A DNA stretch of 63,565 nt, filler included, from Klebsormidium nitens (taxonomy: Eukaryota; Plantae; Klebsormidiophyceae): the NCBI GenBank assembly GCA_000708835.1. It is 4 parts of 4 records of this genome, joined end to end, with 100 filler letters (N's around TTAATTAATTAA, not from the genome) between each part and the next. Parts side by side here need not be neighbours in the genome. Positions count along the whole stretch, not along the records: positions 21,014 to 38,222 come from DF237988.1; positions 38,323 to 51,855 come from DF238065.1; 2 more parts are not named here. One strand, written 5' to 3'. Positions within the stretch are counted from its first letter, which is position 1. Every line of letters starts with the position of its first letter. Made by a program: the position numbers and the translations under genes. Of this stretch, positions 15,503 to 43,577 are shown in pieces. The notes beneath the pieces are model-generated. The model saw nothing but the letters and a program-made list of their open reading frames with translations. It was not told the DNA's origin and searched no databases.

Positions 15503-15646
15503 GACCGTCTGCCGGAAGGGATGGCGGAGGAATGCGCGCTAGCTCGCAACTCCTGACTCTCTGCAAACTCTGCGCGAGCATGTGAGGCATACCACCAGCT
15601 GGCACACGCCCCTCTTCAGCTAGGATGGCCGCGGTGCAGGAACTTG

Positions 15647-15714
15647 AATCAGTCAAAATTTGCATCTATACTCTATACCTATAGGACTATAAAGGTTGCA
15701 GATTTTGACTGATT
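15647..15714 (+). repeat. H-family hairpin copy H4 (intron 1; 212-bp tandem period with H3)
   Basis: Identical to H3 except one base. Confidence 0.95.
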
Positions 15715-16581: not shown

Positions 16582-16646
16582 ATCAGTAGATTCTTGCAAC
16601 TAATCATATAGACTATAGAACTATATAGACTGCAAAAATCTACTGC
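16582..16646 (+). repeat. H-family hairpin copy H5 (intron 2)
   Basis: TCAGTAGATTCTTGCA / TGCAAAAATCTACTG arms starting about 16 nt after the GTGAGC donor; degenerate ggagga..cgctag flank. Confidence 0.9.
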
Positions 16647-18584
16647 GGAGTCTCTGGCTGAAAAAAAGGAAGGGGGAGGACAGGACCCTACGCTAGGTTG
16701 CAATTCTTGTGGCCGGTCGTTCTTGAGTCGAAGCCATCAAAAGTGTATCTATGTTGTAGCAGCGCCCTAGAACTCTGGGGAAGATTCAAAAAGCAGTCAC
16801 GGGCCGCCATTGACACGTTTCTAACGGGCGTCAGTTGCACATGCTGCAGGCGCCCTCGGCTAGCCTGCGCTACGTGAAGCAGCTGACGGAGGCCGCCGCT
16901 TTAGAATTCGGGCCATCGAAGGATGTGAAGGCATTCCACGGCGCGCAGAAATCTCCGGAGGACAAGAAGCGTCTGTTTCAAGCCGTGGCGGAACCGGACG
17001 TGCACATGCTGGCGGATTTGATGACACACACGTCGGTCATAGGCCCGGGAGTATCGGTTGGAAGGCCTTGGTACGATACGGTCGTGGCGCTGGCTTACAA
17101 CAGCTCCTTCCACCCGGACGTGTTTGCCTTCATCCAGATGCTCTTTCGGCTTCGCATCGCGGGGCCCATGGACATATTCCTCAGTGCCGACAACCCGCGC
17201 GACTGTCAGCCGGCGTGCTTGCCGACAACGAAGGAAGACGTCTTCCGAGCGATCGAGGATGAGGACGAGGAACTTCGCAAAATGCTAGGGTCCACCGACC
17301 ACCTCGACTTTCTTGTCAGACGACGCGGCAAGCGGGCGATATGCAACCGGGAGTCTGCCACGTGCGTGTTGTACGCCAACAACGTGCTCGCGAGATGCGA
17401 CAGCATCCGCCACTACCTGAAGATCATGACGGAGGATCTGCAGAAGCAGGGACTGACGGTCATCGAGAAGGGAGCACCGTGTGTGGAGACCGAACATACT
17501 CCTCCAGAGGCTTGCGATCCCGATGCAGAGCTGACGGCTGAGGAGTGGCGAGAGAAGTACGTGGTTCGCGGAGACCAATACTCGCATCTCTAGGTGCTGG
17601 AGGAGTCGCAGGACGTCGGCTTACTAGAGCTGAATCAGATCAAGTTGTACGAGGCGATCCATGAGTTCTACAAGGTCGACCCCGGACTGGTCGACTTTGA
17701 CTTCTTCGATGAGTTCTGTGGGGAGGACAACAAGAACCGTGACATGTATGGAAATTACATGAGGTGAGCAACCTTGATTCGACGGGGCAACTTTCCCACT
17801 GAGCTGATGGCGTTTGATTGGTTGTCCGGTGGAAGCTTTGTCCTTGCAAGGATTATCCCGAAACGCTTGATTGATGATCATTCTACTGGCGGCTGCAGGT
17901 TCCGCAAGCTCTCCCGCGACCAGATTGCCGCGGGGCTTTGCATTCCACTGAAGGAAGCCGATGCGGTGGGCGTTACTCAAGACTATGTGACGGAGCGGGA
18001 CAGGCCTCAGAACAAGGTGCTCTTTGCCCGTGACGTGCTGGCGGACCTCATGGGCGTGAAGGACTCGGAAGGAGGATCGCTTGACGGGGCACTTGACAGC
18101 TACGAGGTCACGGAGTCTTCAATTCAAGCCGCCTATGCGGCGAAGGTCGGCACGAGCCAAGGGAGGCTCGCGAAGGTGCGCGGTGACTATGGGATACGAC
18201 AGAAGGCGGCGCTGGACAAGCTGACGCCGAACCTGAAGCGGAACGTTGTCAAGAAGGTCATCTCCATCGGGCTAGGCCTCGACTTTCTCTTGAGCACGAC
18301 TAGCAATAACAAGTTCGTAGGTCCGCACGTCTTCCAACCGGCCCTCTGGAGGGAGTTGCATGAGCGATATGGGGATACGCCAAGTAGCTCAGAGGCGGAC
18401 GTTGCGCTCATCGTGATCCCGTCATAGCTAGCTAGTAGTATAGATGCAACAGTACATAAGACGATTGAGTATACTCTTAAAGAGTCAAGTGGTGAACGGA
18501 GTCAATTGATTGATGTGCGATACATGTTCTGACGCAAATGGCATGTGACCATTCTTTTATCTTTGGCGACAAGTAACATGCGCT

Positions 18585-21013: not shown

Positions 21014-21363
21014 TGTTCAGCACCGCTTCATATAATGTGCGCACCCAGTGCACTTTCAGTTACTTTGGAATGGCGTCACTTTCAATGCAATAAGCGGTCC
21101 AATATACATCTGGTATGACAGTTGATGCTATTCTCAATTACAAACCAGTTCATTGTCGCTTACAACCCCTCCTATTGACTATCCGAAACGGCTCAAGGTC
21201 CAGAACGTCCTTGAGACTCAGGAGCGCACCGTCTTTGCAAACGGCTTTGAAGGATGTGACCCACTTCCTAGCCTTGCTCCCCGCATGCTTCAGCTCAAAC
21301 TCCCCTACCGCCAAGGACTCTCCTTTTCCGCCTACACACGGAGGCACACGCGTCAGGGAATAC

Positions 21364-23450
21364 TCAAGGTATACGACTCTGCTTTGAGCATATTGCTTGA
21401 CAACAAGCAGAGCAGTCCTTGACAATCTTTGACGCGCGCTTACCACATGATTCACACTGGCACCCCTCTACTTCAGCAACAGTCTGCCGGGACTCCATGT
21501 CCTTCTTGACCACGAGAGTGCCCCTGAGCTTGTTACACTCGATGGGAATCCTCCTGACGTAGACAGGGCCCTTCCCCTTCCTCTTCTTGATACTTAGGTT
21601 CTCCTCATGCAAAGAGCGCTTCCTCCCCACCTGCAAAAGAGTAGCAATGATTACTCCCACCATGAAGTACCTTACAGATACATGCCTGCACAATGGCTGT
21701 ATGCACATACAAAACAAGTAACATCAGACAGGGTGGAACGGTGCCTTACTTTGGGACTGTCAACTTTCTCCCCAGCATCCTTGGAACCCCTCGCAAGGGA
21801 CAGGAGCTCCTCCTTCAAGCACGCAGTCACCCCTTCCAGCTCTTTGACTATCTTGTTGCTTTCCCTAGAGTCTTCTGCATCACGTAGAGCCCTGTCACGT
21901 GCTTTCTCCGACTCCTGCAGTCTTTGGGTCAATTCGTTGACGACCGCCTCGCCTTCTCCCTTCCCCTTTCTAACTTCAGCTTCGAGCTGTCGTATCGAGG
22001 CTCTAGCGTCTTCCCCATCACTTCGTGCCTCCAAGAGTTGGGCCTCGAGTTTCTGAATGGATAACGTTGACTCGTCCAACCTGAGCTGAACCTGCACCAA
22101 CCGATATATGCAGTCAGGTGGCCGAATGAGCACATACATTCGTATGTACGCAGTGCGTGGGTCATAGCGCAAAACCGAGCAGAGCGCGCAGCGCAGCGCA
22201 GCGCGCAGAGCTCACCTGTTCTAGCTCCTCCTGGGCTCTCATCGATTCCCTCTGAGCCTCGCTCACTTCAGCCTCAAGCTGCTGGTGAGCAGCTCTTGAC
22301 TTTCCCAAAGCCAGCACAGAAGCACCCTCTGACTCCAACAATTCAGCTTGAAGTTCCTGAATGGTTGTTTTCAAGTCGAGCTGATTCTGCACACATCAGC
22401 AAAGGGGCAGTTTACAGATGATCAGGATAATCATGCATCTGTGTACTGTACCTACAAACAAGGGTGCGCATCACAGAACAGCCCTGCACGTGCTTTCTCA
22501 CAAAGACCTGTTTGCCTGAGTGCTCACCCGTTCCCATTCGACCTCTGCCTTCTTAGCCCTCCGCGCCTCCTCATAAAGTGCTTGGTTAGCCTTTCTCAAG
22601 TCTTCAACCTCAATACCAAGTCGCTGAATTGTAGATTTGGCTTCCTCTACCTCCAGCACAGAGGCGTCCCGGGCACTTATAGCCGTCCTCAGCTCAGCTT
22701 GGAGACGCACATTGGATGCACCCAAGGCCACCAACTTGCGCGTTCCAGCACGCCTCAAGTCACTGAGTTTGAACTCAACCTGCAAGATTCACCTAGACTT
22801 AGAGTACTTGCAGACCTCCGTGCATTCCCAAGGGTCAGAGCCGTGTGCATGCATGCATGCATCCTCCAGTTCTCAACACTGGCGCGCACTCACCTCTTTT
22901 TGCTTCTCCGCTGCTAGTTCGAGTTTCTGTGCCAGTTGTTTGTTCTCCACGTTGCTTCTTTGCAGCTCATCATGGATCCGGTCCTTCTCTAAGACGTACT
23001 CCTGTGTAAGTTTGCAGCAACCCTGGGGACGCCTCGACCACAGTGGCACAGCCGCACTCATGAACCCTGCAACTAACTCCTGCACGTGTTGGTAAGCCCA
23101 TTTGCATTGGGGCAGGTGATTGGCCCCAACCACAAGGCTTACAAGCTTTCCTTGGCTTGTCTTGAGTGAAGAGAGGAGGTTTATCAGCTCCTTAAGGATT
23201 GCCCCAGCACTTTCCTCCCCGTCGTGTACGTTCAGCCCTCGGTAGAATATTGCTCCTGGGGGTGACACTAACAGTCGCTGGAAATCTGACCCCAAGTAGC
23301 GTGCTCTGACTCGGGAATTGTGTAGGAGGCTGAACAGGGCAATGTTGTTCGGGGCATTTGCCAACATTGCTGCAAACGCTGCTACGGAGTTGCTCCTCAG
23401 CGTGCATCTTTCCTGACCCTTTAGGAAATCCAGGCAAGGATGCATGGTCG
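21364..23450 (-). CDS. Multi-exon coiled-coil protein with a C-terminal C-x-C-x2-C motif (SAND/ULT- or Tify-binding-like)
   Basis: Several coiled-coil exons flanked by GT/AG sites (22873-23445, 22498-22785, 22162-22392, 21810-22100); terminal IPIECNKLRGTLVV..GCQCESC. Confidence 0.5.
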
Positions 23451-24795
23451 GTGGATGAGGGCAGGTGTGATCTATTCCTCCGTTTGGGACCCTTTATAAG
23501 CTTGCAGGATTGGCAACCCTGCCAATTGGCGCTTGTGGCCTGAGCCATGGTGACCTCTTTGGCGGCACACTGGCGAAGGGGGCGCCAGTCGTGAGTCAAA
23601 GAGGTTGCTGGCGGGCTAAACAGTACTCGCGGGGCCCAGCTTGGCGATAAACGGCGGGCATCCGGGCACCCGTGTTTCCTATGGTTGGCGGGCACTGGCG
23701 AATAAGGGCAACTTGATGGGCGGCTTCAGGAAAGGACTTCAAAGCATGCACTCACTTTGAGAAAAAAAGAACCAGAGATTGGGCTAGCGGCGCTTCACAT
23801 CTGCTGACGCCTCTTCGCAAGCGCCATGGCAGAAGACAGCTTCTTTGTAAAGAAATACAACCACACTCAACTTGGTGCTTGTGTCTTCACGGCCGAGGCA
23901 GCAAGGGAGTGCATCAGCAACATGCCTGGCAGCACCTCAGCGTGGTGCACTGAGAGTGTGTCAGCTTCCGCAGCAACGCTGACCGCCCAGCAAAGGGCCC
24001 TGCTGGACATGGCTCGAAGTCTTGCGGGGTTACACTCCCGCAGGTTGCTCAGGTGAGCATGGGACAGGTTACTCACGTGCGCACTTGTGTGGTATGGACG
24101 TTGGCCCAGGACAGTGGCGTATGATCAGCGTTTTGCGCTTGGTCAAGGATAAGCTGGGGCTTAGGGAATTGAGTAGTATTACCCAAGGTCTCTTTCGCAG
24201 GTGGCGGTGGTGGACTGGATCAGGGGTGGGCAAAACGGGGGTCTCAGGTGAGTCGTGGCTTAGGGAGTTGANNNNNNNNNNNNNNNNNNNNNNNNNNNNN
24301 NNNNNNNNNNNNNNNNNNNNNNNNNNNNNNNNNNNNNNNNNNNNNNNNNNNNNNNNNNNNNNNNNNNNNNNNNNNNNNNNNNNNNNNNNNNNNNNNNNNN
24401 NNNNNNNNNNNNNNNNNNNNNNNNNNNNNNNNNNNNNNNNNNNNNNNNNNNNNNNNNNNNNNNNNNNNNNNNNNNNNNNNNNNNNNNNNNNNNNNNNNNN
24501 NNNNNNNNNNNNNNNNNNNNNNNNNNNNNNNNNNNNNNNNNNNNNNNNNNNNNNNNNNNNNNNNNNNNNNNNNNNNNNNNNNNNNNNNNNNNNNNNNNNN
24601 NNNNNNNNNNNNNNNNNNNNNNNNNNNNNNNNNNNNNNNNNNNNNNNNNNNNNNNNNNNNNNNNNNNNNNNNNNNNNNNNNNNNNNNNNNNNNNNNNNNN
24701 NNNNNNNNNNNNNNNNNNNNNNNNNNNNNNNNNNNNNNNNNNNNNNNNNNNNNNNNNNNNNNNNNNNNNNNNNNNNNNNNNNNNNNNNNNNNNNN

Positions 24796-24982
24796 TGATA
24801 CTATGTTTCAGCCTTTTCCTTTTTTCCCTTCAGGGGAAATTTTTGAAGGACAGTGTGTACAACATGGTACTATCCACAAATGGGCTATATATATGTATCT
24901 TCTTTTTTGGGAAAAAAAAGTTATATAATAGGTATAGTAGGGCTTTCCTTGGACCGGCATGAGTGAGCACTATGTATGTATG
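24796..24982 (+). repeat. Left inner inverted repeat (continues into the N gap)
   Basis: Its reverse complement aligns with 37722-37899 (catacatacatagtgctcactcatgc identical; then cctactat, tttttttcc, acatatatat, catttgt, ggaaaaaagg, gaaaca.agta in order). Confidence 0.85.
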
Positions 24983-25061
24983 TTTAACCGTTCCACATGA
25001 AAAGCTCATTGTATGTGATGGCTTTCATGGACCATACCGTTTACAAAGTGTCGTACTCAAC

Positions 25062-25186
25062 TGCGGAGGCACTTGGCGTGGATACATGGAGGATTCCAAG
25101 AGTCTCCCTAGGGCAGCTAAATTTGCATCTCTCAACCTGAGATACTTTTTGAAAAACGCTCGTCATCCGTGTATATGCGCGAGCCA
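25062..25186 (+). repeat. R-family 124-bp palindromic repeat R1
   Basis: tgcggaggc..gcgtggatacatggaggattccaagagtctccctagggcagctaaatttgcatctctcaacctga..aaaaacgctcgtcatccgtgtatatgcgcgagcca. Confidence 0.9.
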
Positions 25187-25314
25187 TCTCATTGAAATTG
25201 TGGCACATGTTGTATGTGATGACTTCAATGTCGCTTAGACACAAGTGCCATTCTACAATACCCATGGCTGCTCCCATTATTCTTGCGCTCATAGCAGACA
25301 CTCAGCCTTGTGCC

Positions 25315-25746
25315 ATGGACACAACATCTCTCCTGCACTTGGCACAGACAATCGGTTCTCTCAGCAAGGATCCCAGTAAGCATGTGGGTTGCTTGCTGCT
25401 GGACAGAGCGGGCACCAGCGTCCTCAGCGTGGGCTGGAATGCCTTTCCGGATGGAGTGAATGATAATATCCCTGAGCGATGGCAGAGACCATCAAAGTAC
25501 AGCTTCGTAACCCATGCCGAAGTGAATGCCATTTCCAAAGCGGCTAGGAATGGAATCCGGTTGGACGGCGCTACACGTATCATCACACTCTTCCCATGTA
25601 CGGACTGTGCAAAGGCGCTCATTCAATCAGGCATCCGACGGATAGTGACCACACAACCTGATGTCAATGACGCGAAGTGGGGGCCGGACTGGCGAAACGC
25701 AATGGGATTATTGAAAGAAGCAAACATAGAGCTGAATGTACAGTGA
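25315..25746 (+). CDS. dCMP deaminase (NCLDV-like, intronless)
   Basis: SKDPSKHVGC, GWNAFPDG, RPSKYSFVTHAEVNAI (HAE), TLFPCTDCAKALIQSGI (PCxxC). Confidence 0.95.
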   Translation: MDTTSLLHLAQTIGSLSKDPSKHVGCLLLDRAGTSVLSVGWNAFPDGVNDNIPERWQRPSKYSFVTHAEVNAISKAARNGIRLDGATRIITLFPCTDCAKALIQSGIRRIVTTQPDVNDAKWGPDWRNAMGLLKEANIELNVQ

Positions 25747-25773
25747 GGGCACCGTATTTTTGCTGGCTGTGAC

Positions 25774-26592
25774 ATGGAAAACATTTGCTTGTCGGCAGGC
25801 GGGCTCAAGTTCCCGCTTCACTTGGGAGCTCTCGACTTTCTAGAGGAGCGCGGGGCTGCTCCTCGAGCTTATGCTGGAAGCAGCTGTGGGGCAGTCGTGG
25901 CCGCACTCGTAACAGCTGGATATCGACCCAGTCAGCTCCACAAGCTGTGTAAGGCACGGCCTTTAAGCATGTTCCAAGTTTCCCCTCAAAAGTGGGGCAT
26001 GTGCAAGCCAGCTGGGAAGGACGAGGTCAGGGACCTCTTGAGAAAGAGGCCCAGCTGCCGGAAGCAGGGCAGCTCAGACCCCACCTTTCGAGTGCTTAAG
26101 GAAGAAACGGGTAAAGACCTCTTTGTAACCGCGATGCGAGTCCGTGACGGCAAGTTGGTGATCTTTGGTGCAGAAGAGGCCACCATGGACCTTCCGATAC
26201 ACGAAGCTGTTACAGCCAGCTGCAGCATCCCCTTCCTGAACCCTGCCATCGAGCTGGATGGAGAGTTGTACTTGGATGGAGCCCTAGGAGCTTATCTGCC
26301 CATGCGGGCTTTTGAACACATCGAAGACAAGCAAACTGTCACCGGTCTCATGATATGCAATGCAAGGGAAAGAGAAACGCCACTAACATTCGAAGAGTAC
26401 AGCAGCTCTGTTGGAAATATCGTATTAGAAAGACTCAGTGAACCCCAGAAAGCTTGGGAGAGTAACAGGACTATTCATTATGATGCAAATGAACTTGGAG
26501 TTTTCGAGAGCCCTAATGCAGGCCTAGCAGACATCATGTTCTCCAGAGGACGCAATACTTTGCAGAGATGGGCAGCTCGACACCACGTCTAA
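25774..26592 (+). CDS. Patatin-like phospholipase (NCLDV-like, intronless)
   Basis: LSAGG oxyanion loop, GSSCG (GxSxG), ASCSIP, YLDGAL (DGx). Confidence 0.93.
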   Translation: MENICLSAGGLKFPLHLGALDFLEERGAAPRAYAGSSCGAVVAALVTAGYRPSQLHKLCKARPLSMFQVSPQKWGMCKPAGKDEVRDLLRKRPSCRKQGSSDPTFRVLKEETGKDLFVTAMRVRDGKLVIFGAEEATMDLPIHEAVTASCSIPFLNPAIELDGELYLDGALGAYLPMRAFEHIEDKQTVTGLMICNARERETPLTFEEYSSSVGNIVLERLSEPQKAWESNRTIHYDANELGVFESPNAGLADIMFSRGRNTLQRWAARHHV

Positions 26593-26936
26593 GCAACATT
26601 CGGCCATGTCTCTACAGCTTGTGCCTGAACAAAGCCCTGCTCATAGCAATCGTGCGCTGTCCATCAAAGTCCTCATCAGGCTGCAAGTGCCTCCACGTGA
26701 CCGCGAGCGGTCTCATGGAGTTCCGCGCGCGCACATATTGCGGCCGCCTTTACATATTCGACCGAGCTCTCGCACATTTTGGTGACCACATGAAAAGTCT
26801 TAGGATTTCAGGGTGACGGCTCCTCGTTTTGGTGACCACATGAAAGTGCCTTTTGCTTGACCGGTGATTTGAGTCCCGGCATGCGCCTCCCGACGTTGAT
26901 TGGGAGTTGGAGATGCCGTGAAAGAGTGCCCGGAAG

Positions 26937-27005
26937 TGCCGCACGGTGCCGGAGAGTACCACATCCTGCCGTAGTAGGTCAGTTTCACTTAACCACGTGA
27001 GCCTT
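26937..27005 (+). repeat. Direct repeat left of the nuclease gene
   Basis: tgccgcacggtgccggagagtaccacatcctgccgtagtaggtca..cttaaccacgtgagcctt; recurs at 29167-29242. Confidence 0.85.
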
Positions 27006-27590
27006 TATTTACCAATTTCACCCAAAGTGTCGCCCCCATGATGTAACGTAGGCAACACGAAACGCGATGACAGTAATACCAGATTTATCTGGCTTTCCGC
27101 TGGCCGCCAAGCTGGCCTGGTACCAAAAGAAACCCCGTGCTATGTCTCCTCAGAAATGCCCTGACTTTTGACCCATAACGAATGCACCTACGGACATTTC
27201 GCCAATTGATCACTCAGGGACATCGAAGGGACTGATGGAGGTCTCTATAACGTATGTCGCGGGGCATGCTAAGAGTAGGGATCCCAGATTCCCAGGTTGA
27301 TAAGCCCGGTGATGCAGCATACATTGTTAGCATACCATCTCTTGAGCAAGAAACCCGGTCCATTCATAGGCAGCAAACCCATCCGGAATCATCAGAGTAT
27401 TGCACGCGACTTGCAAACACTTTCATCGAAATTGGTCATTTTGAGTCTATGTGTCAGAAATCTCAAAGGTTCAAACGTGGTCTTTAACTCTAAAACCCAG
27501 GGCCCACCAACAAGGTGTTCAACTCGCAAGAGCAATAGCTACAACACATGATAGACCTAGGACCAACAAAATTCGTTTGAATATCATCCA

Positions 27591-28640
27591 TCACCACCTA
27601 CTCTTGTTTCTCGAAACTGGCTCAATTGTCCAGTCCTCCTGCAAGTTGGCATACTCCAGGATAAGCGTGTTCAATGACATGCCTTTTCGCAACCACACAC
27701 CGCCTTGTTGTCCTTCCGTAAACCCCTCCACAAAGTCGCCCTTGTAGATCGACTTCACCTCTCCGGCTTGCTGAAGCACTAGGGAGTGCCCAAGGTCGAG
27801 AAAGCAGAGCCCATCAATGTTGGTGTAAGTACACGCTATGACAAGCGAGTCCGGGTGCCGTTGCAAGAACGCCTCTCTAGTATATCGAAGGGCCTGCTCT
27901 CTAACCCTCACAAGCTGTGCATGACGGTTCACGCGCTGATTGCGCCCCGGAAGCTCGGTGGCGTGCTTCACTTCGATGACCATGAAAATCCCAAACCCGT
28001 TGGTTAGAACCAGGTCTACGACACCCAAGTCACTCCGGCCCTTACAAACCTCCCAGTTCATATCAAAGATGTATGGGCAACACGAGAGGCCGTCTGCCCA
28101 GAGCTTGGACCCAGAATCGATCAAGGCCTGTACCAGCCGACGTGTCAACTCCTGCTCTTCAACCGCACCCAAAGGGGATCTCAGTAAGTGGGACTCCAAG
28201 TCGCGAACCCAGCCCTCATGCACGCCCCGAGCAAAACCGAGTTCCTCTGGATCCGACCACCTCTTGAGAAGTCTGATGGTGGCTAGAGCATTGGCCCTAG
28301 CAGCTTGAAGCTCATGCGGAATGGCAAATTGGTAGATGGGGGGGTTTATTTCCAATGTACTTCCTTCGCTCCCACTCCTTGTGACCTGTTGGAACGCCCA
28401 CACCGTCACAGAAAATTCGCCCCCCCTGCAGTAGTTGTATTGTTCGTTCATGCCCCATAGTGCCTCGATTCTCTTGGAGGGTTCAAACGAACCTTGGAGG
28501 CGCCATCCCCTCTTAGCGTGAAGGATTCTCTGCAGGTGACTGATGCAAAGGTAGCGAACCAGCGCGCCTCTTCTTGGATGCCAACGAAGGCTCTCTAGGG
28601 TCCCATCCCAGCTGAAGCACGTCTTACAGCAGCACCCCAT
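27591..28640 (-). CDS. PD-(D/E)xK (restriction-endonuclease/RecB-like) nuclease-domain protein, intronless
   Basis: EQELTRRL (motif I), GVVDLV (II), VIEVK (III), REQALRY (QxxxY motif IV). Confidence 0.75.
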   Translation of the reverse strand: MGCCCKTCFSWDGTLESLRWHPRRGALVRYLCISHLQRILHAKRGWRLQGSFEPSKRIEALWGMNEQYNYCRGGEFSVTVWAFQQVTRSGSEGSTLEINPPIYQFAIPHELQAARANALATIRLLKRWSDPEELGFARGVHEGWVRDLESHLLRSPLGAVEEQELTRRLVQALIDSGSKLWADGLSCCPYIFDMNWEVCKGRSDLGVVDLVLTNGFGIFMVIEVKHATELPGRNQRVNRHAQLVRVREQALRYTREAFLQRHPDSLVIACTYTNIDGLCFLDLGHSLVLQQAGEVKSIYKGDFVEGFTEGQQGGVWLRKGMSLNTLILEYANLQEDWTIEPVSRNKSRW

Positions 28641-28699
28641 GACAGCGTAACTCAGCTTCAGCAGCCACGTTTAAGGTTGTGTGTATTCTTCCGGTAACT

Positions 28700-28810
28700 A
28701 GCAGCACAGCACAGCACATCACAGCACAGCACAGACCCGGGCGCGTTTCAGGCGCTCAGTCTGCCATTTCGTGACATGCACAGCTCTGGGCACCACAGCA
28801 CACAGCACAG
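28700..28810 (+). repeat. (CAGCA)n microsatellite patches
   Basis: gcagcacagcacagcacatcacagcacagcacag and cacagcacacagcacag. Confidence 0.7.
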
Positions 28811-29071
28811 TGATTTACTGGCACTGGGCAAATTGATTTGAGCCATAATCGGACTTTCCTAAGAGCAAAATATGATCTACTAGATACCAAACCCCCTCAT
28901 TTTCGACCCATCTTTTCATTTCACGAAGAATAAATGCTGAGCTGTCGATGACGTGGTGACAAGGGCAAAACAGGCGGTCAATCGACGCGCCGGCTTGACC
29001 TCCCTAGCTGAGCGTTACGCTCGACCTACGACACTTATGATGAAACTTGTAGTAAACCATCTGTTCTTCGC

Positions 29072-29330
29072 TGACCACGTTGAGAACGTGGATGAGTACG
29101 GACCGAGAGGACCCAATATTACACAACTTGTGAGACCACCACTGGGCCGGACTATTCCGCGAAAGATGCCGCGCGGTGCCGGAGAGGGCCACACCCTGCC
29201 GTAGTGGGTCAATTTCGTGTTATACTTAATCACGTGAGCCTTAAACCCTCTGCTCTTTCCTGACCACATTGAGAACGTCTTTCGGACTCGGCCTGAGAGG
29301 ACTCGATACCACACAAACTTGCAAGACCCT
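29072..29330 (+). repeat. Direct repeat right of the nuclease gene, within a tandem unit of about 189 bp
   Basis: tgaccac(g/a)ttgagaacgt..gagaggac..acacaacttg..agacc at 29072 and 29261; the unit includes the copy of the 26937-27005 repeat. Confidence 0.8.
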
Positions 29331-29929
29331 TACTACACCGCGCGGTCCGACTGGCAAACTGGACCGAAGCCATTGGACCAATAGGATCGGTCCAGTGGAT
29401 CGGTCCGTCAAGCTCCGGAACGGGCCGTGAAGGGCCCGAGCAAAGCCAGAAGTGCCAATATGGAGCCGGAGAGCGCCAAGTGCCAGAGGTCCTTCCCTGG
29501 GAATTTCAAGCATATAAATGGCCGCACTTTCAGCAATAAACCATCCATCTGGTTCAACCCTTCACCTTTTCAATCCTTTCACACTCCATGGAGATTCAGC
29601 AGTACTTGCAGCAGTCACTCTCGGGTAATTGGCTTTGCCAAGAGGTGAGTATACCGTGTTGCATATGTGCAAGCACATCAGCTGCATGGAGGTCATGATA
29701 GCGTACCTTCTACGGCATCGATTCTTGCTGTTGGGTCAACTCTGACAACTCTAGATTGGCCTTCAACCATATCAATCACCGTTTGCAGAGACGAAGTGCA
29801 GATGACATAGACGCCGCGCTCGGTTTGCCACAGCCAGAGACACCTCCGAGCTCCGTGGTAAGACAGCAGCGTCTGAGAGGATGCGAACTCTGCTTTCTCC
29901 AGATGCCATATTGCCTTTGGGATGCCTCA

Positions 29930-30170
29930 ACACACCATGTATGTTCGGACGCCCTCCTGGGATGAGCCCAAGGAATGAGCTTTTGGTGTTTTCGGACGCT
30001 TCTGTGATCTTAGGTATCTATGATGAGCTTTCGGATGAGCTTTCGGACGCGCTTTCGGATGAGCTTTTGGATGAGCTTTCGGATGAGCTTTCGGGCGCTA
30101 TCCTCGGACGAGCTCCTGAAATGAGCTCCTGGGATGAGCTCTTGGTACTTTCGGACGCTTGGGTATAAGA
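29930..30170 (+). repeat. 12-bp GATGAGCTTTCG tandem repeat within a local duplication
   Basis: About six gatgagcttt(c/t)g units at 30022-30093, flanked by duplicated ctcctgggatgagc..ttttggt..ttcggacgct. Confidence 0.8.
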
Positions 30171-31639
30171 CTCTGCTATTCCCAAGCATTTCCTCATCCA
30201 TTTGCTTCAGCCTTCACCTTTGCAAGCTCTTCAGCCTTCATCTTTGCAAGATCTTCAGCCTTCACCTTTGCAAGCAGTCTCCACCTGTAGAGCACTACCA
30301 ATGGCAGTACAGCAGCAGAAGATGTTGCTGTTCCCCTACTTGAGCATAGATTCCGACTGCTTACAGCAACTGCTCGGAGACGAAACCAGTCTGCAACCAG
30401 AGATGCCAAGCTCCATGGGCCAGCAGCAGGTAGGCTCTTTTCTGGAAAGTTCAAATTCAATGAATGCATCAGAGTGAGCGATGCTTCAGGGTTCTTGGTT
30501 GCCGCGTTTATAATAAGCAGGTTGGCATGTTGGTTGCAGGGACGGCTGCATGCAGACACGGTCGACATCACCGCAAGGCAGCAGCAGAAGGTAGACACCA
30601 GAATCTTTGAAGTGAGAACCTTTCAGCATAAGGCTGATGCACTTCGCATGTCAACAATTGCAATTGCAATGCGTGAAATGAATCATGCAAGGAAAGAGGA
30701 TGATCTAGGGTTTGGACAACATGTCATCACACTTCATCAATCACCGTCTGCAGGAATTCTTGGCCCCATTCCCAGACCGCATTCCCAGTCCCACGCTACG
30801 GCCACAACATCCATGGTAAGAATACACACCAAACAGTAATGCTTTCCAATTTCTTGGTCTGCCCAGGCTACGTTGGCATATTTGCATGTTTACTCAAGGC
30901 TCCATTTCACACTTGCCCCGATTCTCAATTAGGATATCGGTGCGAGTGGGCGCTGTCCTGTTGCTGAAGCTCTAGCTGAACGCGTACTAAATGAGTACTG
31001 AAGCGCTTACCTGGTGGAAACCTTGCAGGCCTCCAACAGGAACGTGGGATTGTCAGCGACGGTCCCGTACGGTGTTAATCTCTTCGGGAACCGCTATCGT
31101 CCCCGCTCCCGCCGCTATCGTTCCCGCTCCCGCTCCCCTGCACGACAGCTGGTGAGCACCTGTCATGTGTTTCAAGGTTGTACGTATCTCGACCCGTCTG
31201 AAGTTGTTAATCAGGGCAAATTCCTGTAATTCCGGTTGCAGGAATCCATTCTGGTTTCAACTCTGAAACCTGACTCCTCAATTACGCCCTGCAGACTTTG
31301 GATCTGGGGGTCAACAGCAACATCTCAGATGCGTCAACCCGGCCCTTGCTGGAGAGAATTGTTGCCATGCTGCACGACCTTCCGGAGGAAGATTTGGAAG
31401 GTGTAGAAAGGATCATTGTAGCCACTATCGGATCCTTCTGTGGCTGAACCGCTTGCGCGGTCTGCAAGGGTTGTGGGCAGTCACAAACAGGTGCCAGCAG
31501 TAGGCTGGGAGCACTTTGAACCACCGACATGTAAATACCGTATTTCAGGGAGTTTGAGATTGCTTTAGTAGATTGCAGGTTCCGTATGTTAGACCATGCC
31601 ATGCCACTTTTAGGGTGTATATACGATATCGTATACATC

Positions 31640-31763
31640 TGCAGAGGCGCTTGCGCAAAAACACAGAGGATTTAGAGAGTTTCCTTGAGGAGGCTAAACT
31701 TGCATCTCTCAACCTGATATAGTTTCTGAAAAGCGCGCGTTACCCGTGTACCTGTGCAGACTA
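31640..31763 (+). repeat. R-family repeat R2
   Basis: tgcagaggcgcttgcgcaaaaacacagaggatttagagagtttcct..ttgcatctctcaacctga..cccgtgtacctgtgcagac. Confidence 0.88.
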
Positions 31764-32509
31764 CACCAATTGGAATGATGTACATGTTGTCAGCCATGTG
31801 TGACGATTACGTCTGGTTAAGCCTAACCTCGTTCTCGTCAGGATTTCGTTGGCTGCTTGTTAGCGAAACGACAGCGGTTACGTCTTAACGGCGCGCTGTG
31901 AGACCGTTGATATACGGCGTTCCNNNNNNNNNNNNNNNNNNNNNNNNNNNNNNNNNNNNNNNNNNNNNNNNNNNNNNNNNNNNNNNNNNNNNNNNNNNNN
32001 NNNNNNNNNNNNNNNNNNNNNNNNNNNNNNNNNNNNNNNNNNNNNNNNNNNNNNNNNNNNNNNNNNNNNNNNNNNNNNNNNNNNNNNNNNNNNNNNNNNN
32101 NNNNNNNNNNNNNNNNNNNNNNNNNNNNNNNNNNNNNNNNNNNNNNNNNNNNNNNNNNNNNNNNNNNNNNNNNNNNNNNNNNNNNNNNNNNNNNNNNNNN
32201 NNNNNNNNNNNNNNNNNNNNNNNGCAAGTTCCCTAGAGGGGGCGAGTCTAGAGACTTCCCAAAATCTGAACAAGGAGCCTCTTCGTGAGTCCTAACTGTT
32301 CAGAAGAAATCAGAACTTGGGAAGAAGGCAAGAGAGCAACAATTTTTCTGAGAGGCGCTCTTGCTGAAGGTGAACCTAAGTTGGGCTGAAAAGCTGGGCA
32401 TGGATTCCGCACATGTCTAGCAGACGGGCAGCGTTGAAACCCGTCCAACCGTCACACCATGACTTTAAGATGCCATACCAATCATGAAAGTGGTATTTGT
32501 ATACACAAT

Positions 32510-32633
32510 TGCAGAGGCACATGCGCGGATACACGGAGGATTCAGAGAGTCTCCCTAGGGCGGCTGAAGCTGCATCTCTCAATTTGACATACTTTGTGAA
32601 AAACGCTCGTTATCCGTGTATCTGCGCGGGCCA
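32510..32633 (+). repeat. R-family repeat R3
   Basis: tgcagaggcacatgcgcggatacacggaggattcagagagtctccctaggg..tgcatctctcaa..aaaaacgctcgttatccgtgtatctgcgcgggcca. Confidence 0.95.
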
Positions 32634-32929
32634 AGTCAAGCGAGCTTTAGACCGGAGAAGCCCCTGCATCGGCCATACTAGCATCGAACGTAAGCTCAGC
32701 ACGTGCGTAAAGACACGTGCACGGTCTAAATTGCTTTCACATTGGTAATGGTACCACGCGACCGCGCGCGCTGTGGCGCTTCAGAACGTTGCCGCAGATT
32801 ATGGCAGTATAGATCGGACAAGCGTCAGCTCAATAACGACAACAACAACAACAACGTAGAAAGGCGCAAAGATAGAGCTTTAGAAGAGAAAGAAGAGAGA
32901 GGCGCAGCTGCTAACAAGAAGACGGCCTA

Positions 32930-33961
32930 ATGGCGGACTGGGACAACATTAGGGCTGCTCTTGCCCCCAGCTGCAACGCCGCTGTGCTAGACAAGGTGCT
33001 CAGTCAAGTGAAGCTCATCCTCCTAAACCTGCGGGGAGAAGGGGTGGCTGATGCTGCAGACTTACAGGCGCAGTACACGAGGATTCTTGCCCGGAGTCTG
33101 TCAAACTCGAGAAGAGCTAGAGGCCTCGTGGCACACTCGCTGCGGGAGAGGATAGAGGAACTGGTAAACGGAGGTTGGAGGGGGTTGATTGAGGCTTTAG
33201 TACTTCTTCACCAGCCTGACGACAACCTGCTGTTGCTTACCCAACAACTGAACTCATCATCTATCCTGGAACGTGAGCTAGAAGGGGTCTCCTTGGGGGC
33301 AGTTATGAGAGCACTGAACACAGCAAATAGGGGAGAAGGATGCGACATCATCAAGCTCCGAGCTAAAGAGATACAGCGGAGAGTAGATGCAAGAGTATCT
33401 GTCATGCTCCCCTACTGGGAGAAGAGCTGGAAGCTTTACAACTGGTCATCACTTTCAACGAATCAGGAGACCATCCGAGATCATTTGTACACGCGGTTCA
33501 ATGCAGTGCTAAGGCTCATCATCCCGCACGAGCGTTACTGGGAGAACCTCGTGGAGAAGTATGTGAGAGCCACGTTCCGCCTATCACAGTCAGCAAACGG
33601 ACCAATCATCACCTCAAAGCTATACCACACCGCTGACATGGAGCTGGTAGTTCCCAATGTTGAGAGCGGGCACCTGAGGGTTCTGTACGAGGTCTTAGTC
33701 GACAATGAGCGAAAGCTGATGTGGTGGTCCATCCCACGGTCTTTGACATTACAGCAAGTGCTTCCCATCCCAATTCAGAGAGGAGAAGAATCAGAGGTGC
33801 CACCAGAGCAGACCTCGATGTTCCAGAAAGCTTGCGCAAAGTGCGGGTCTGCTGCTACTTCAAAGTGCTCTAGGTGTGAGCTCTGTAGATATTGCAGTGC
33901 AGACTGTCAGAGAGAGGACTGGGCCAGACACAAGGAGTACTGCACATTGCATAGAAAGTAG
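32930..33961 (+). CDS. MYND-type zinc finger protein, intronless
   Basis: C-terminal CAKCGSAATSKCSRCELCRYCSADCQREDWARHKEYC. Confidence 0.9.
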   Translation: MADWDNIRAALAPSCNAAVLDKVLSQVKLILLNLRGEGVADAADLQAQYTRILARSLSNSRRARGLVAHSLRERIEELVNGGWRGLIEALVLLHQPDDNLLLLTQQLNSSSILERELEGVSLGAVMRALNTANRGEGCDIIKLRAKEIQRRVDARVSVMLPYWEKSWKLYNWSSLSTNQETIRDHLYTRFNAVLRLIIPHERYWENLVEKYVRATFRLSQSANGPIITSKLYHTADMELVVPNVESGHLRVLYEVLVDNERKLMWWSIPRSLTLQQVLPIPIQRGEESEVPPEQTSMFQKACAKCGSAATSKCSRCELCRYCSADCQREDWARHKEYCTLHRK

Positions 33962-34096
33962 GCAATTGAAGAAGCCCTCGGCAGCAAGCTAAAACAAGCA
34001 GGCAGCTGAACTGGTCCTGAAGCTAACCGAGATGTTATCACATATTATGACTACTAAGACCATACCACTCACGGAGGACATACATTCGTATTCGAT

Positions 34097-34220
34097 TGCA
34101 GAGGAGCTTGCGCGGATACACGGAGGATTCCAAGAGTCTCCTTAGGGCGGCTAAACTTGCATCTCTCAACCTGACATACTTTATGAAAAACGCTCGTTAT
34201 CCGTGTATCTGCGCGGGCCA
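34097..34220 (+). repeat. R-family repeat R4
   Basis: Same consensus; lies between two convergent gene ends. Confidence 0.95.
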
Positions 34221-34286
34221 ATCAAGATGCTACCGTTCGAGAATGTCCTTGACGGATGCTGACGTACATACAAAAATGGCTGCTAC

Positions 34287-35369
34287 TCAAGCAAGCTTCA
34301 GACCGAAAAAGGCCCTGCATCTTCTGTTATTTTGCATGACCTTGCAAGGTTCGTACCCTAACTTATGCATGACCACACCCACTGCCCTTGCAGAGGGAGC
34401 ACGCTGGCCCTCGTACATGATTGCAACGAGCCTCTCGAGGAAGGAGCTCGAGGCCAGCCTCTCAGTAGGATCCACAGTGCAATGCTCGGTAATAAATTGC
34501 TTGATCACGGCCTCGACAGCGGCCGTGCTTCGCGGATGCGGGGCCTGAGGCATCACTTCCTGATCCGGGGGTTCCTGTGCGGAGACGGGAGCATGCAGCC
34601 TGGGTTCGTCGGAGCTTCCCTGGACGTCCTGGCGGTCACGTGCGGAGGTCCTACTCCGCTTGCGAGGGACCTTTAGGCTCAGGGTGGCCATCCGGAACTC
34701 GTGGTCCAACTCGGCGATGCGTACATCAGCTTGGCGCTCAGCCACCCGCGCGTTTGCCTCGACCTCGGCCTGTCGAGTCTTCTCCTTTGCAAGCAAGACC
34801 TCTGTGCTGATGTACACGCCCGACTTCCTTCCAAGCGGAGGGTTCTCTTGCAAAACGATGGGTGGCTGCTGCCTGTTTGTAGTAAGCTCCAGGTAGGCGT
34901 CCCGGATTGCCTTGAAGAAAGCTCGAACTCGCTCGCCGGCCTCTGTCTGTGCCGCCATCGCAAACCTCTCAAAGGCATCTACAGTGAGATAGTACTTCTC
35001 TGGAGCTGGGCCCTTCCGTAATCCTTCTCCCTCCTGAGCGAGGAGGGAGTTAGTCGAGCCATGCTCAATCCGTGTGAAGTCCGTGTCTTCCACGGGGCGA
35101 GCCCTCAAAGCCCGGATGGCATTGTCTCTCCTGCCATACTGCAGCCAGGTATACGCGTCGTCGAAGTTGATTGGGTAGCGCTGGCCCTTGTCATCAAAAG
35201 CTTTCACAAAAACCTTCCCTAGCTCCTCCCAGCCCTCCAGCTGGCTCACGTCAATGGCCCGGACGGCTGGGTGTGCGAGCACGCGGTCGGCAAGAGCTAC
35301 CTCCATGTCAGCTGAGCAGTTGCCCTTCTCGGCCGGAACGGTCGCCCTAAGTGTTGACGCAGCCTCCAT
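34287..35369 (-). CDS. Viral antirepressor-like (MSV199/AntA-like) N-terminal DNA-binding domain, coiled coil, and D5/P4-primase-type C-terminal winged helix
   Basis: YPINFDDAYTWLQYGRRDNAIRAL..DF..YYLTVDAFERFAMAAQTEAGERVRAFF; C-terminal IKQFITEHC..SARAVGVVMHKLGY..RAFFGLKL. Confidence 0.7.
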   Translation of the reverse strand: MEAASTLRATVPAEKGNCSADMEVALADRVLAHPAVRAIDVSQLEGWEELGKVFVKAFDDKGQRYPINFDDAYTWLQYGRRDNAIRALRARPVEDTDFTRIEHGSTNSLLAQEGEGLRKGPAPEKYYLTVDAFERFAMAAQTEAGERVRAFFKAIRDAYLELTTNRQQPPIVLQENPPLGRKSGVYISTEVLLAKEKTRQAEVEANARVAERQADVRIAELDHEFRMATLSLKVPRKRSRTSARDRQDVQGSSDEPRLHAPVSAQEPPDQEVMPQAPHPRSTAAVEAVIKQFITEHCTVDPTERLASSSFLERLVAIMYEGQRAPSARAVGVVMHKLGYEPCKVMQNNRRCRAFFGLKLA

Positions 35370-35485
35370 CCCGGGCAGAAGTTACCACTCCTGGCCTGAA
35401 CTGTTGCCTTAAGTATCGATCCGTATGCGCAAGACAGTCAGCTGTTAGACGCCATACCACATATGTAAGTGGTTTTGTGTGCAAC

Positions 35486-35609
35486 CGCGGAGGCACATGC
35501 GTGGATACACGGAGAATTCAGAGAGTCTCCCTAGGAAGGCTAAACGTGCATCTCTCAACCTGAGGTACTTTTGGAAAAAGGCTCGTTATCCGTGTATCTG
35601 CGCAGGCCA
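35486..35609 (+). repeat. R-family repeat R5
   Basis: Same consensus; lies between two divergent gene starts. Confidence 0.95.
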
Positions 35610-35831
35610 CACGAAGTCGGTCAAGAGCTAACATACTGGTACTTAGGGCATCGGCATCCGACTAAGATGCAAGCTGGTGAAATATGTGGCCGAATGCGTT
35701 TGAAACGGGTGAAATTCTTCCAGGACCACCCGTAACGATGGCGAGTCAGCAGATTATCACCCCGTCCACTCTAAAGACGATATCCCAGGGGTTCGAAAGG
35801 AGCATGACGGACCGCTTGGGGTCCATATTCG

Positions 35832-37201
35832 TTGGACTGTTCCATAATAACGGCAACGAGTACCCGGTTTCCCTTTGAAGAAGCCTGGCAGTGGTTGGAG
35901 TACAGCACAAAAGGAAGCGCACTACGCCGGTTGGAAAAGTACACGGAAGGCGTAGACTTTAACATCAATGTTAAGAGAGACACGGGGGGAGGTCCGTCCC
36001 ACAGATACTTTCTCACGACGGATTGCTTCGAGGACCTGGCCATGAAGACAGAGACGGCCGTCGGTAACAGCATTCGCCGGTACTTCCGAGCAATCAGAAA
36101 TGCATACGTTGAGGCTCTACGGTCATTCAAAGCAGTCGAGTCACGCGAGAAGGCATTGGAGATGCTTCTAGACAAGCAAGGGTGCCTCTATCTTGCGTGT
36201 ATCAACGAAAGTGGAATGGAAAGCTGTACAAGTACGGTTGCAGCACCAACCTCCAGAAGCGGAACATAGCGCATCGCAATCACTTCAAGGACCCTTACAC
36301 TTACCGGCTGGAGTGGGCTTGGAAAGCGGATCGGCCAAAGGATGCAGAGGATTCCTTCAAAGAGGACCCTCTAATCAAAGAACTTCACCAGGATGTGGAG
36401 GTTGGAGGCACTGTGCATCGATAGATCATACACTTGCCGGAACGTGTGGACAAGGACACAGTCCTGGCAATTGCTGAAAGGGCTGCCCACAAGAGCCAAC
36501 ACACGATCCAACACCTCTATGTGGGTGGAGTGAGCAACAACGAGAAGTGCAAGGAGGTCTTACTGGAAAAGGAGAAGACCCGACAAGCCGAGATCAATGC
36601 CAAGGTGCGCTTGGCTGAGTTGGATTACGCTCTGAGGATGGAAGAGCTCAAGCTTTCAGCTCGAACGCAAGCAGGGCACGCAGCACCAGAGCCTCATGCA
36701 AGTCGTCCAGCAGCTCCCCTGCTGGACGGGTGGGATCATGAGGAAACGGGAACGGTCTCGGATGCCTGCAGCACTGCGATGGTTCTGTCCAACTGCCATG
36801 TGTCCACCACTGCGGAATGTACAGAGGAGATGCCAAGAGAGGGCTCTGTGACGCTGGGAGACACCACTGAAGGAAGGGAGGAGCAGGCGGATGCCGGTGA
36901 AGGTATTGAAGTAGCCCTCGAGCAGCAAGTCCAAGATGCTGCCCAATCGGGCGACAGCCAGGCAGCGGAGCTGGTCAAGCGGTTCGTCGAAGAGCATTGT
37001 GTAGTGGGGGCGTCGGAGAAGGTGACATCCAAGGAGTTCCGTGCACGCCTTCTGGCTACTTATGGTGAAAGCTACGGGCGTCTTCTCGGCCCAAGGCGTG
37101 TCGGTATGCTTATGCACGCAAATGGTTTCGAGGCTAGAGAGGTGCAGTGCGAGCTGAAGCGCTGTAGGGGCTTTGCGAGCATCTCCCTGAAGTCGTGCTA
37201 A
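35832..37201 (+). pseudogene. Paralog of 34287-35369 with an extra T5orf172/GIY-YIG-like domain; frameshift about 36210 and TAG at 36422-36424
   Basis: FPFEEAWQWLEYSTK..YFLTTDCFEDLAM..IRRYF; GCLYL..KLYKYGCSTNLQKR..AEDSFK; EVLLEKEKTRQAE shared with the paralog; same C-terminal wHTH (KRFVEEHC..RRVGMLM..RGF). Confidence 0.75.
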
Positions 37202-37269
37202 ATAGATGCGGCACTTGTCATCGGCCATGACTTCGAGATAACATGCCACCTACAAAGTACATATTCGAT

Positions 37270-37393
37270 TGCACAGGCGCATGCACGGATACACAGAGGA
37301 TTCAGAGAGTCTCCCTATGCGATCTAAACTTGCATCACTCAAGCTCACAGACTTTTTGAAAAACGCTCGTCATCCGCGCATCTGCGCAGGCCA
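37270..37393 (+). repeat. R-family repeat R6
   Basis: Same consensus; tandem with R7 at a 206-bp period. Confidence 0.92.
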
Positions 37394-37475
37394 TGCCAAT
37401 TGAGACGCTACACAAATTGTCAGCCACGACACTTGAAACCATACCAACCACGAAGTGCTTACATTCATATCTAAT

Positions 37476-37599
37476 TGTGCGGGCGCATGCGCGGATACAC
37501 AGAGAATTCAGAGAGTCTCCCTAGGGGAGTGAAACTTGCATCTCTCAACTTCAGAGACTTTTCGAAAAACGCTCGTCATCCTTACATCTGCGCAGACCA
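37476..37599 (+). repeat. R-family repeat R7
   Basis: Same consensus; last copy before the right inner inverted repeat. Confidence 0.92.
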
Positions 37600-37721
37600 C
37601 GCCAATCAGATGTTGCACATGTTATCAACAATGACTAGACCGCTCCTGCTACCCTTACCCCTAATAAGGCATGATATGTACGTCTGTGGGTTCTACTCCG
37701 TTGCACGTGGGTTCGTTTCTG

Positions 37722-37899
37722 CATACATACATAGTGCTCACTCATGCAAGTCTATGAGAAGTCCTACTATGCATGTTTACATTTTTTTCCAGAAAGAGAT
37801 TACATATATATGTCATTTGTAGATGGTCTTATAAAATGTATACTAAGTTACAGAATTCCCCCCCCATGGGGGAAAAAAGGAAGGTGGAAACACAGTACA
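37722..37899 (-). repeat. Right inner inverted repeat
   Basis: Inverted counterpart of 24796-24982. Confidence 0.85.
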
Positions 37900-38007
37900 A
37901 AGTAGTTTTAAGGTAGATTCAAGTGAGGACTATGTATGTATCTCTTCCATTCTTGAGACGAAACGCCTCCCTGAATGATCAACACACCTCTGCACTCTAA
38001 GCCTCTA

Positions 38008-38150
38008 ACCTAGCCCAAGAAATATTTCTCGAACTGCTCCTACTCAAGTCCCTGAGCCTCTGAACTAGCCCAAGAAACATCTCGCCTTGAAATGCTCATA
38101 CACAAGTCCCTAAGCCTCTGATCTAGCCCAAGAAACATCTGCTCATACCC
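38008..38150 (+). repeat. Subterminal tandem repeats of about 55 bp (caagtccctaagcctctg..ctagcccaagaaacat)
   Basis: Three copies. Inverted motif copies ggcttaggga(a/g)ttga at about 24158-24175 and 24257-24271, and ttgggctag at 23779. Confidence 0.75.
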
Positions 38151-38632
38151 AAATCCGTTGGCCTCAATAAACATTCCTCAACCAACGCTCGCATGCACCC
38201 GCATGTGAAGCGGCGCTGAACANNNNNNNNNNNNNNNNNNNNNNNNNNNNNNNNNNNNNNNNNNNNTTAATTAATTAANNNNNNNNNNNNNNNNNNNNNN
38301 NNNNNNNNNNNNNNNNNNNNNNCTTCTCAGTGAGGAGAATGAGGAAGATGAGAAACGAGCGCATATGCTTCCGCCCTTCCATTGCATACATTCAGGCTTT
38401 GCCGCCGGGGGCCTCTACCCCCTCGGTTTCATCATGCTCATCCGCCTCATTCTCTTCAGTGAGGAGGATGAGGAAGATGAGAAACGAGCGCATCAAACAT
38501 GTTTTCGGCTGCGTTCATGCGTCGCACGTTTGGCGAAAGGTTCGATTAGTGGCGTCTGATGCCTCATTGAGTAATCGCAAAGAGAGAACGTTTGCAATTG
38601 CTTTCATTTTTGTGTATTTGAAATATCTGTAC

Positions 38633-43130: not shown

Positions 43131-43577
43131 CCTAGCCAATGAATGCTGCATGCTGCGCTGAGCTTGAGCGACTTTCTGACTGCTCTCTGCGGACTCTGAG
43201 CTGTCTCAGATACTCTGATAACCTGCGTAAGTCACACCGTGATACCCATAAAAGTGATTCTTTGGGACCTGCGTTCAGCTCACAACTTGTTCGCAGGTCG
43301 ATCGGTTTCAAAGTGCGCCTCTTTTCATTAAGCGTAGGCTCTTTCTTCTGCCGTTTTTTACTTTGAGCTGATGGTCTAGGTAATCAGTTTGCATAGGTTC
43401 CTTATCTTCTTTCAGCCATCCTCACGGTTTCCTCAGCTTGAGGGCCGTAGTGATTCCAGCTGCACGTGTTGAAGAGTTGATCTCTTTAGCAGGCGGTTTT
43501 GCTATTTGTGAGCGATTGGCTTCACAGCACCAGTGGTAGCAGCTAGCAGGTTTCCTATCGGTAGCGAAGTTGACAAG

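Follow-up and report, generated by a model that had tools for sequence, protein, structure and literature searches.

A 17,209-bp segment of the genome of the alga Klebsormidium nitens (positions 21014–38222), which makes up one complete scaffold, is likely a silenced chromosomal transposon that would need the enzyme of another element to move, and not a free virus. It lies in a window of 63,565 nucleotides, the whole stretch of DNA that was analyzed, in which four scaffolds are joined by N44-TTAATTAATTAA-N44 concatenation spacers. The element is real and well defined: its ends, nested inverted arms, cargo genes, an inserted solo long terminal repeat (LTR), the continuation of sequence past both ends, and diverged partial copies elsewhere were all seen directly. 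By analogy, it appears to work like a giant non-autonomous cargo transposon, and we judge it somewhat more probable than not that it belongs to a small, old family of non-autonomous, chromosomal cut-and-paste DNA transposons.

Ends of the segment

The left terminal inverted repeat (21014–21033, plus strand) begins with TGT, and the right one (38203–38222, minus strand) finishes with ACA. The two are identical at 18 of 20 positions when inverted, whereas the adjoining 80 bases agree at only 27, and what the outer left end has in common with the right end is confined to its 20 bp. The terminus pattern (a TGTTCAGC-type end) gave just two matches in the window at up to three mismatches, against 0.03 expected, and none of 100 shuffles yielded two matches, which upholds the 20-bp terminal repeat proposed in an initial annotation of this DNA. 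The terminal 20-mer does not occur in the remaining 46 kb of the window, and the end-to-end match at the other three scaffolds is 5–7 of 20. Compared with the right copy, the left one carries G>A at base 9, which lies at a CpG, and C>T at base 18; both mismatches may be transitions in the left copy, as the decay of methyl-cytosine would produce. The pattern had no match in viral contigs (IMG/VR), and seven matches in metagenome contigs were rejected as chance, having only 20–22 bp in common with the segment.

The segment was compared with read contigs, not raw reads, at no less than 85% likeness. Among 24 listed runs, 5 contain the segment wholly or partly, and no RNA run was listed as containing it, an absence that we do not count as evidence; four of these (X1–X4) represent a single sample, possibly the source of the assembly, and thus do not count as independent support. 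The left contig starts 22 letters before 21014 in X1, X2, and X3, and the right contig in X1 extends 8 letters beyond 38222, indicating that the terminal repeats are not the bare ends of a molecule.

These contigs also bear on the reading in which a common dispersed repeat, the 20-mer, broke the assembly twice and the segment would be no unit. Scaffold ends usually fall at repeats, which agrees with this reading, but the contigs traverse each 20-mer with a depth that is low and flat, breaking only beyond it, the 20-mer does not recur in the window, and the independent nested arms and seven repeat units described below are confined to the segment. We therefore regard it as very unlikely.

Chromosomal setting and silencing

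Between the second and third of the seven repeat units lies a solo LTR of a very abundant retrotransposon (31799–32456, plus strand), with TG..CA ends and a 5-bp duplication, CCATG. Its summed contig depth is about 25,000, compared with about 15 for the segment. The insertion of this LTR between tandem units indicates that the segment has a chromosomal history. The LTR's own ends also read TGT..ACA, and a loose contig end at it resembles what we take to be a primer-binding site. Contig depth across eight listed pieces of the segment was flat, at 13.7–19.5, and was 14.6 for a contig of another locus, although contig depth is not equivalent to copy number.

The differences between run X5 and the segment were C>T at 361 and G>A at 319 positions, as against T>C at 3 and A>G at 10, so that this run is bisulfite-like. 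In X5, non-CG cytosines were retained at no less than 33–85% over the eight listed pieces and at no less than 76% over the gene at the left end, which looks silenced; these figures are lower bounds, supposing that all differences fall at non-CG sites, and the requirement of at least 85% likeness in the contigs compared biases them upward. The observed/expected ratio of CpG was 0.46–0.80 across the parts of the segment and 0.81–1.07 in three regions outside it. In K. nitens, methylation at CHG and CHH sites (H being A, C, or T) is reported to occur on silent transposons (PMC5890265).

It is highly improbable that the segment is a free linear or circular replicon with ends that set the limits of the scaffold. 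In 3 of 3 runs, all from one sample, the left contig halts at the identical letter, which is what a physical end might produce, but the sequence runs past the two repeats by different lengths, the depth is flat and comparable to that at another locus, the segment has received a host LTR, non-CG cytosines are methylated, and no replication gene was found. The suggestion in the initial annotation of a linear extrachromosomal or viral DNA is thus not borne out: contigs pass both ends, with flat depth, the interior holds a solo host LTR flanked by a 5-bp duplication, and the bisulfite-like run retains non-CG cytosines. When its proposed check, a pile-up of reads ending at 21014 and 38222 or raised coverage, was made on contigs, these went 22 and 8 letters further and their depth stayed flat.

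Points against a transposon and the meaning of the contig ends

The upward bias in the X5 figures is the first of several points that weigh against the transposon reading. The library type of X5 is not on record, and near the left end the converted sites in this run comprise 4 of 5 CG, 1 of 5 CHG, and 5 of 10 CHH. The ends TGT..ACA are common to several superfamilies and identify none. Furthermore, a second copy of either terminus was not evident at 85% or above in the read contigs examined. Had the segment simply inserted into a repeat, about 30 outside letters would be expected at each end, and the numbers observed were 22 and 8; as a result, TGT..ACA may not be the true ends. The flank that was read amounts to the 8 letters on the right, and neither a target-site duplication nor an autonomous partner was seen; the giant non-autonomous cargo transposon of the initial annotation is the best reading but is not proven.

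Where the graph branches, contigs share 30 letters, and a contig at the junction with the LTR enters the repeat by 28 letters. The final 30-mers at the left and right ends contain 8 and 22 terminal letters, respectively, the left one stopping precisely at base 9, a position at which the two terminal repeats differ. Because these 30-mers include terminal letters, another locus may share the terminus together with outside sequence, which hints at a preferred target, at tandem end-to-end junctions, or at a longer repeat beyond the scaffold; alternatively, the contig stops may be caused by dead ends in the graph. Two options were set aside: a straightforward insertion into a repeat, for which an overlap of about 30 letters would be predicted, and a palindromic end-to-end junction, with which the right-flank letters do not fit.

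If the 20-mer formed the inside border of a longer terminal repeat, present in multiple copies and cut off in the assembly at both ends, the segment would still be an inverted-repeat element, with its true ends outside and TGT..ACA a coincidence. The 30-letter branch overlaps, the 8 and 22 terminal letters in the final 30-mers, and the stop at base 9 all agree with this, but a symmetric break starting with TGT would be a coincidence of the order of 1 in 16 to 1 in 64, and the same pattern is explained by tandem end-to-end junctions or by a target sequence that is shared. We consider the longer repeat unlikely.

Nested inner repeats and the gene at the left end

Inside the termini, the segment contains a second, nested set of inverted sequences, as the initial annotation had described. 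A degenerate copy of the terminus at 23786–23800, with a 14/15 match (15/20 from 23781), overlaps the subterminal word TTGGGCTAG at 23779, forming a feature at 23779–23800 on the plus strand; a match of this kind was seen in 6 of 300 simulated segments, so that the copy is modest when taken alone. The word has three inverted occurrences near the right end and one outside the segment, at 9356, where it is contained in a near-perfect 230-bp palindrome (9351–9579) that resembles a miniature inverted-repeat transposable element. A possible short spliced gene without a family match is located just after the decayed inner terminus (23827–24250, plus strand), and the subterminal words fall in its apparent introns.

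The inner-left arm begins with an outer part (24075–24271, plus strand) that carries GGCTTAGGGA words at 24158 and 24257, and these words recur inverted on the right at 38049 (with one change) and 38107. This part is the weaker one, with 24075–24188 scoring 44 against the right end compared with a shuffle maximum of 39. It is followed by an assembly gap (24272–24795), into which the left inner arm proceeds; in a read contig, the 325 letters preceding 24796 are present, among them the other arm of a palindromic unit. The inner-left long arm (24796–24982, plus strand) is 77% identical to the right arm when inverted, and the comparison of 24796–24990 with 37715–37905 gave a score of 140, with 132 of 172 ungapped columns identical, against a shuffle maximum of 35, in support of the inner repeats of about 190 bp. 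Each inner arm sits within a unit of about 220 bp having inverted ends; the right one (37722–37941, plus strand), which contains the inner-right long arm, has 20-bp inverted ends and a fold z of −3.57. A right subterminal tandem repeat with a period of 58 and 2.6 copies follows (37997–38144, plus strand). In the read contigs, the gaps of the segment are filled by subterminal sequence and the LTR.

Outside the inner arms lies a spliced gene, KFL_010390010 (protein P0005; 21150–23445, minus strand), whose stop codon is separated from the left end by 136 bp. It contains five canonical GT-AG introns and encodes a long helix, a long coiled coil, and a predicted SAND-like C-terminal domain. SAND is the Atlas cluster nearest to this C-terminus (score 0.86, 179 shared features), and by structure 7 of the 10 Atlas rows are clusters with SAND, ULT1, or TDBD families, at template modeling scores of 0.50–0.66; because Pfam gives no SAND call for P0005, the SAND-like label rests on Atlas. 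The structure models are weak, with a mean predicted local distance difference test score of 54.7 for P0005 and 49.3 for its C-terminal part; a Foldseek search with the full model gave no match at E 0.001, and when solved structures were searched by sequence, no match fell below E 0.19. A paralogue at another locus was matched in five pieces at exon positions, on a contig with a depth of 14.6. The initial annotation held this to be a host-like gene that was captured when the left end was extended. Such a capture is possible; however, owing to the SAND-like C-terminus, the transposon-type methylation, and the paralogue at another locus, it may instead be the family's own accessory gene.

Cargo genes and repeat units

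Stop-to-stop frames of at least 55 aa (134 in total) were scanned against Pfam at E 0.01, a procedure that short exons may escape. None of them matched a transposase, integrase, recombinase, capsid, or polymerase family, in agreement with the absence of a transposase claimed initially. Scans of the DNA for Rfam families and for tRNAs found none, and NCBIfam matches were all far under the cut-offs and were disregarded.

The cargo begins with two intronless genes on the plus strand, those for a dCMP deaminase (25312–25746; Pfam PF00383, E 9e-19; PHROG 174, E 7e-35) and a patatin-like phospholipase (25774–26592; PF01734, E 1e-21). An intronless 349-aa open reading frame (ORF; 27591–28640, minus strand) is predicted by Atlas to encode a PD-(D/E)XK-like nuclease; we treat this as a lead only, as all its Atlas matches are below 0.9 and the nearest named clusters, which are PD-(D/E)XK families, score 0.79–0.81, with a D..EVK motif visible. 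A second set of direct repeats, 76–82% alike, is arranged around this gene (26937–27005, 29053–29137, 29167–29242, and 29242–29328). Spliced-looking ORFs with short tandem repeats and no family match follow (29580–31400, plus strand), and beyond the LTR there is an intronless ORF with a C-terminal MYND finger (32930–33961, plus strand; PF01753, E 4e-9). The last two cargo genes are an AntA/MSV199-type gene, KFL_010390050 (P0001; 34287–35369, minus strand), and its broken paralogue (35808–37201, plus strand), which carries an AntA/MSV199-type domain and a T5orf172-type region and is in three pieces relative to P0003. KFL_010390050 and KFL_010390010 are the annotated K. nitens proteins that map to the segment.

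Seven direct-repeat units of about 160–206 bp with inverted ends of 15–19 bp lie between the genes and, within the window, are confined to the segment. The first is at 25026–25187 (plus strand), and the others start at 31603, 32473, 34060, 35449, 37233, and 37439. Directly after the third unit, a 35-bp remnant (32636–32670) shows 86% similarity to the 3′ end of the AntA/MSV199 gene on the minus strand (34287–34321), suggesting that an earlier cassette was deleted or replaced. An integron-like cassette array was not supported: there was no recombinase in the 134 frames, the stems had a covariation term of +0.41, which was counted as an absence of covariation, and only three of the seven units fold better than shuffles (z below −2).

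Among 25 relatives of the AntA/MSV199 pair that were scanned, 4 matched AntA, 3 MSV199, and 4 T5orf172, with one protein matching the last two. The distant AntA-type relatives with genomic context came from 19 prokaryote contigs, almost all of them cyanobacterial, and from 6 viral ones, at 26–36% identity, and the one viral locus inspected of the six is a piece of a tailed-phage genome. Close AntA/MSV199-type relatives (P0002, P0004, P0014, P0015, P0017, and P0018) are found on Joint Genome Institute contigs of 14–63 kb, which might carry the same ends in other samples. Within K. nitens, extra read contigs revealed diverged copies, at about 85–90%, of 35695–36508, of about 27.3–28.5 kb, and of the left-gene exons, and a related protein is encoded on a different scaffold of 50,853 bases, the one that carries KFL_006520040. 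Single-query searches of the viral contigs of IMG/VR with P0003, the patatin, and the deaminase found no relatives, and the direct-unit pattern had no match there. Judged by its sequence families, the cargo is virus-type, and a giant-virus donor is not among the evidence obtained.

These findings bear on the reading that the segment is a degenerate integrated DNA virus (Polinton-like, virophage-like, or a piece of a giant virus), in which the inner arms would be the old genome termini and the core genes would have been lost. The intronless virus-type cargo (dCMP deaminase, patatin, AntA/MSV199, and T5orf172) and the long inner arms agree with it, as does the report that genes of viral origin are methylation-enriched in K. 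nitens (PMC12344493). On the other hand, capsid, polymerase, packaging ATPase, and integrase families appear in 0 of 134 frames, IMG/VR holds no match for the terminus, the unit, the patatin, the deaminase, or P0003, the AntA-type relatives are mostly cyanobacterial and distant, with a tailed phage as the viral one inspected, and the left gene has canonical spliceosomal introns. Weighing these, we think a viral remnant rather improbable.

Proposed mechanism and comparison with known elements

To account for the structure as a non-autonomous transposon, we propose that a DDE transposase supplied in trans would move the segment by binding the terminal and subterminal repeats. The inner arms, which are 77% alike, could represent an older pair of ends. 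On this view, the left member of the pair would have lost its terminus to decay at about 23.8 kb, and a left end of the family lying 2.8 kb farther outward would then have come into use. The coiled-coil/SAND-like gene would then be an accessory DNA-binding gene or a passenger, and the cassette array may have expanded through duplication and exchange at the 160–206-bp units. The element would have been silenced by methylation, and the scaffold may have broken at both ends because the outside DNA is repeated.

As the source of the transposase, a PlavakaA-like element is the leading candidate by analogy, and that the partner is in fact a Plavaka is a possibility that we put forward tentatively. 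In the accessible text of PMC12730594, PlavakaA, of the CMCT/CMC clade, has TGT..ACA ends and 2-bp duplications, and the segment resembles it in its TGT..ACA termini and short terminal inverted repeats; in contrast, the segment contains no Plavaka transposase, and its letters after TGT are unlike those of the fungal families presented there. Plavaka elements are present in streptophyte algae, K. nitens not being named in the portion available (PMC13519894). The closest precedent in these sources is found in Amoebidium, in which methylated clusters of intron-poor genes of up to 50 kb have Plavaka transposases at their flanks (PMC11244446). These giant repeats are usually flanked by a transposase and many of their genes are tyrosine recombinases, neither of which the segment has, whereas the nested inverted arms and the seven palindromic spacer units are features of the segment, unlike the Amoebidium repeats as described in that part of the paper.

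The initial annotation had named KDZ (Kyakuja, Dileera, and Zisupton) as an example of an autonomous partner. This is not favored: KDZ elements are similarly large and cargo-bearing, with consensus rows of 9–24 kb, but none of the 14 fungal consensus rows shown starts with TG (they start with CA, GA, GC, or GG; for Kyakuja-1, 10 of 19 places are shown), whereas PlavakaA ends in TGT..ACA. Kyakuja has CA..TG without terminal inverted repeats, and Zisupton and Dileera have 8-bp duplications (PMC12730594); for KDZ elements as a group, a target-site duplication of 7–8 bp would be expected. A KDZ-like gene appears to be present on the next scaffold, judging from a motif that Pfam searches of single exons did not confirm, and no DNA similarity was found between the segment and that neighboring scaffold.

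Other elements share single features with the segment. Ginger1 and Ginger2/TDD start with TGT, like LTR ends, and their termini are given as TGTNR with repeats of 40–270 bp (accessible text of PMC2836005), which does not agree with the TGTTC and 20 bp of the segment. IS481EU also ends in TGT..ACA and is reported from parabasalids (PMC10045372, in part).

Polintons, Polinton-like viruses, and endogenous giant-virus regions are similar in size, inverted ends, virus-type accessory genes, and silencing, but the segment has no polymerase, capsid, ATPase, or integrase family among the frames searched with Pfam. Pack-type/CACTA non-autonomous elements have a short terminal repeat, subterminal tandem repeats, captured genes, and a coiled-coil DNA-binding accessory protein. 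The ends of the segment are not CACTA, and its cargo consists of whole intronless virus-type genes, not of host gene fragments.

Other loci in the window

On the scaffold next to the segment, a multi-exon gene with a chromo domain (46660–51420, minus strand; Pfam E 1e-10) has C-terminal motifs that resemble those of KDZ-type transposases, which Pfam on single exons did not confirm. This scaffold ends in tandem repeats of 138 bp and 62 bp, and the termini of the KDZ-like gene's scaffold are therefore probably unassembled. Convergent with this gene on the same scaffold is another spliced gene (43533–46612, plus strand), which has a P-loop and matches DUF3987 weakly. Elsewhere, an intron-poor region (14091–18427, plus strand) with weak DEAD/ResIII matches only has a CpG observed/expected ratio of 1.07, unlike its surroundings; it resembles a virus-type primase with a superfamily-2 helicase. 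Finally, a repeat-rich pair at 1600–1860 and 2500–2690, apparently inverted and composed of 32–33-bp units, suggests a small foldback-like element.

Significance

No account of this element was present in the literature searched, the coverage of which stops short of Repbase and most subscription journals, and the segment is probably a variant of giant cargo transposons that has not been described previously. A further-reaching interpretation is that it represents a target-site-specific giant TGT..ACA family in streptophyte algae. Such a family would encode a SAND-type accessory protein of its own, would gather phage-type and giant-virus-type genes between palindromic spacers, where they serve as exchangeable cassettes, and would in this way spread viral genes in the host genome; we consider this interpretation doubtful. 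If the end-plus-flank signal shared with another locus reflects a preferred target, this would be rare among terminal-repeat DNA transposons.

The virus-type genes of K. nitens are usually read as endogenized giant-virus DNA. If the segment is a transposon, some of these genes would travel as cargo between defined ends, and the segment would provide termini for a giant element of algae whose superfamily, possibly Plavaka, is poorly described. It would also represent a route by which viral genes may multiply in a relative of land plants.

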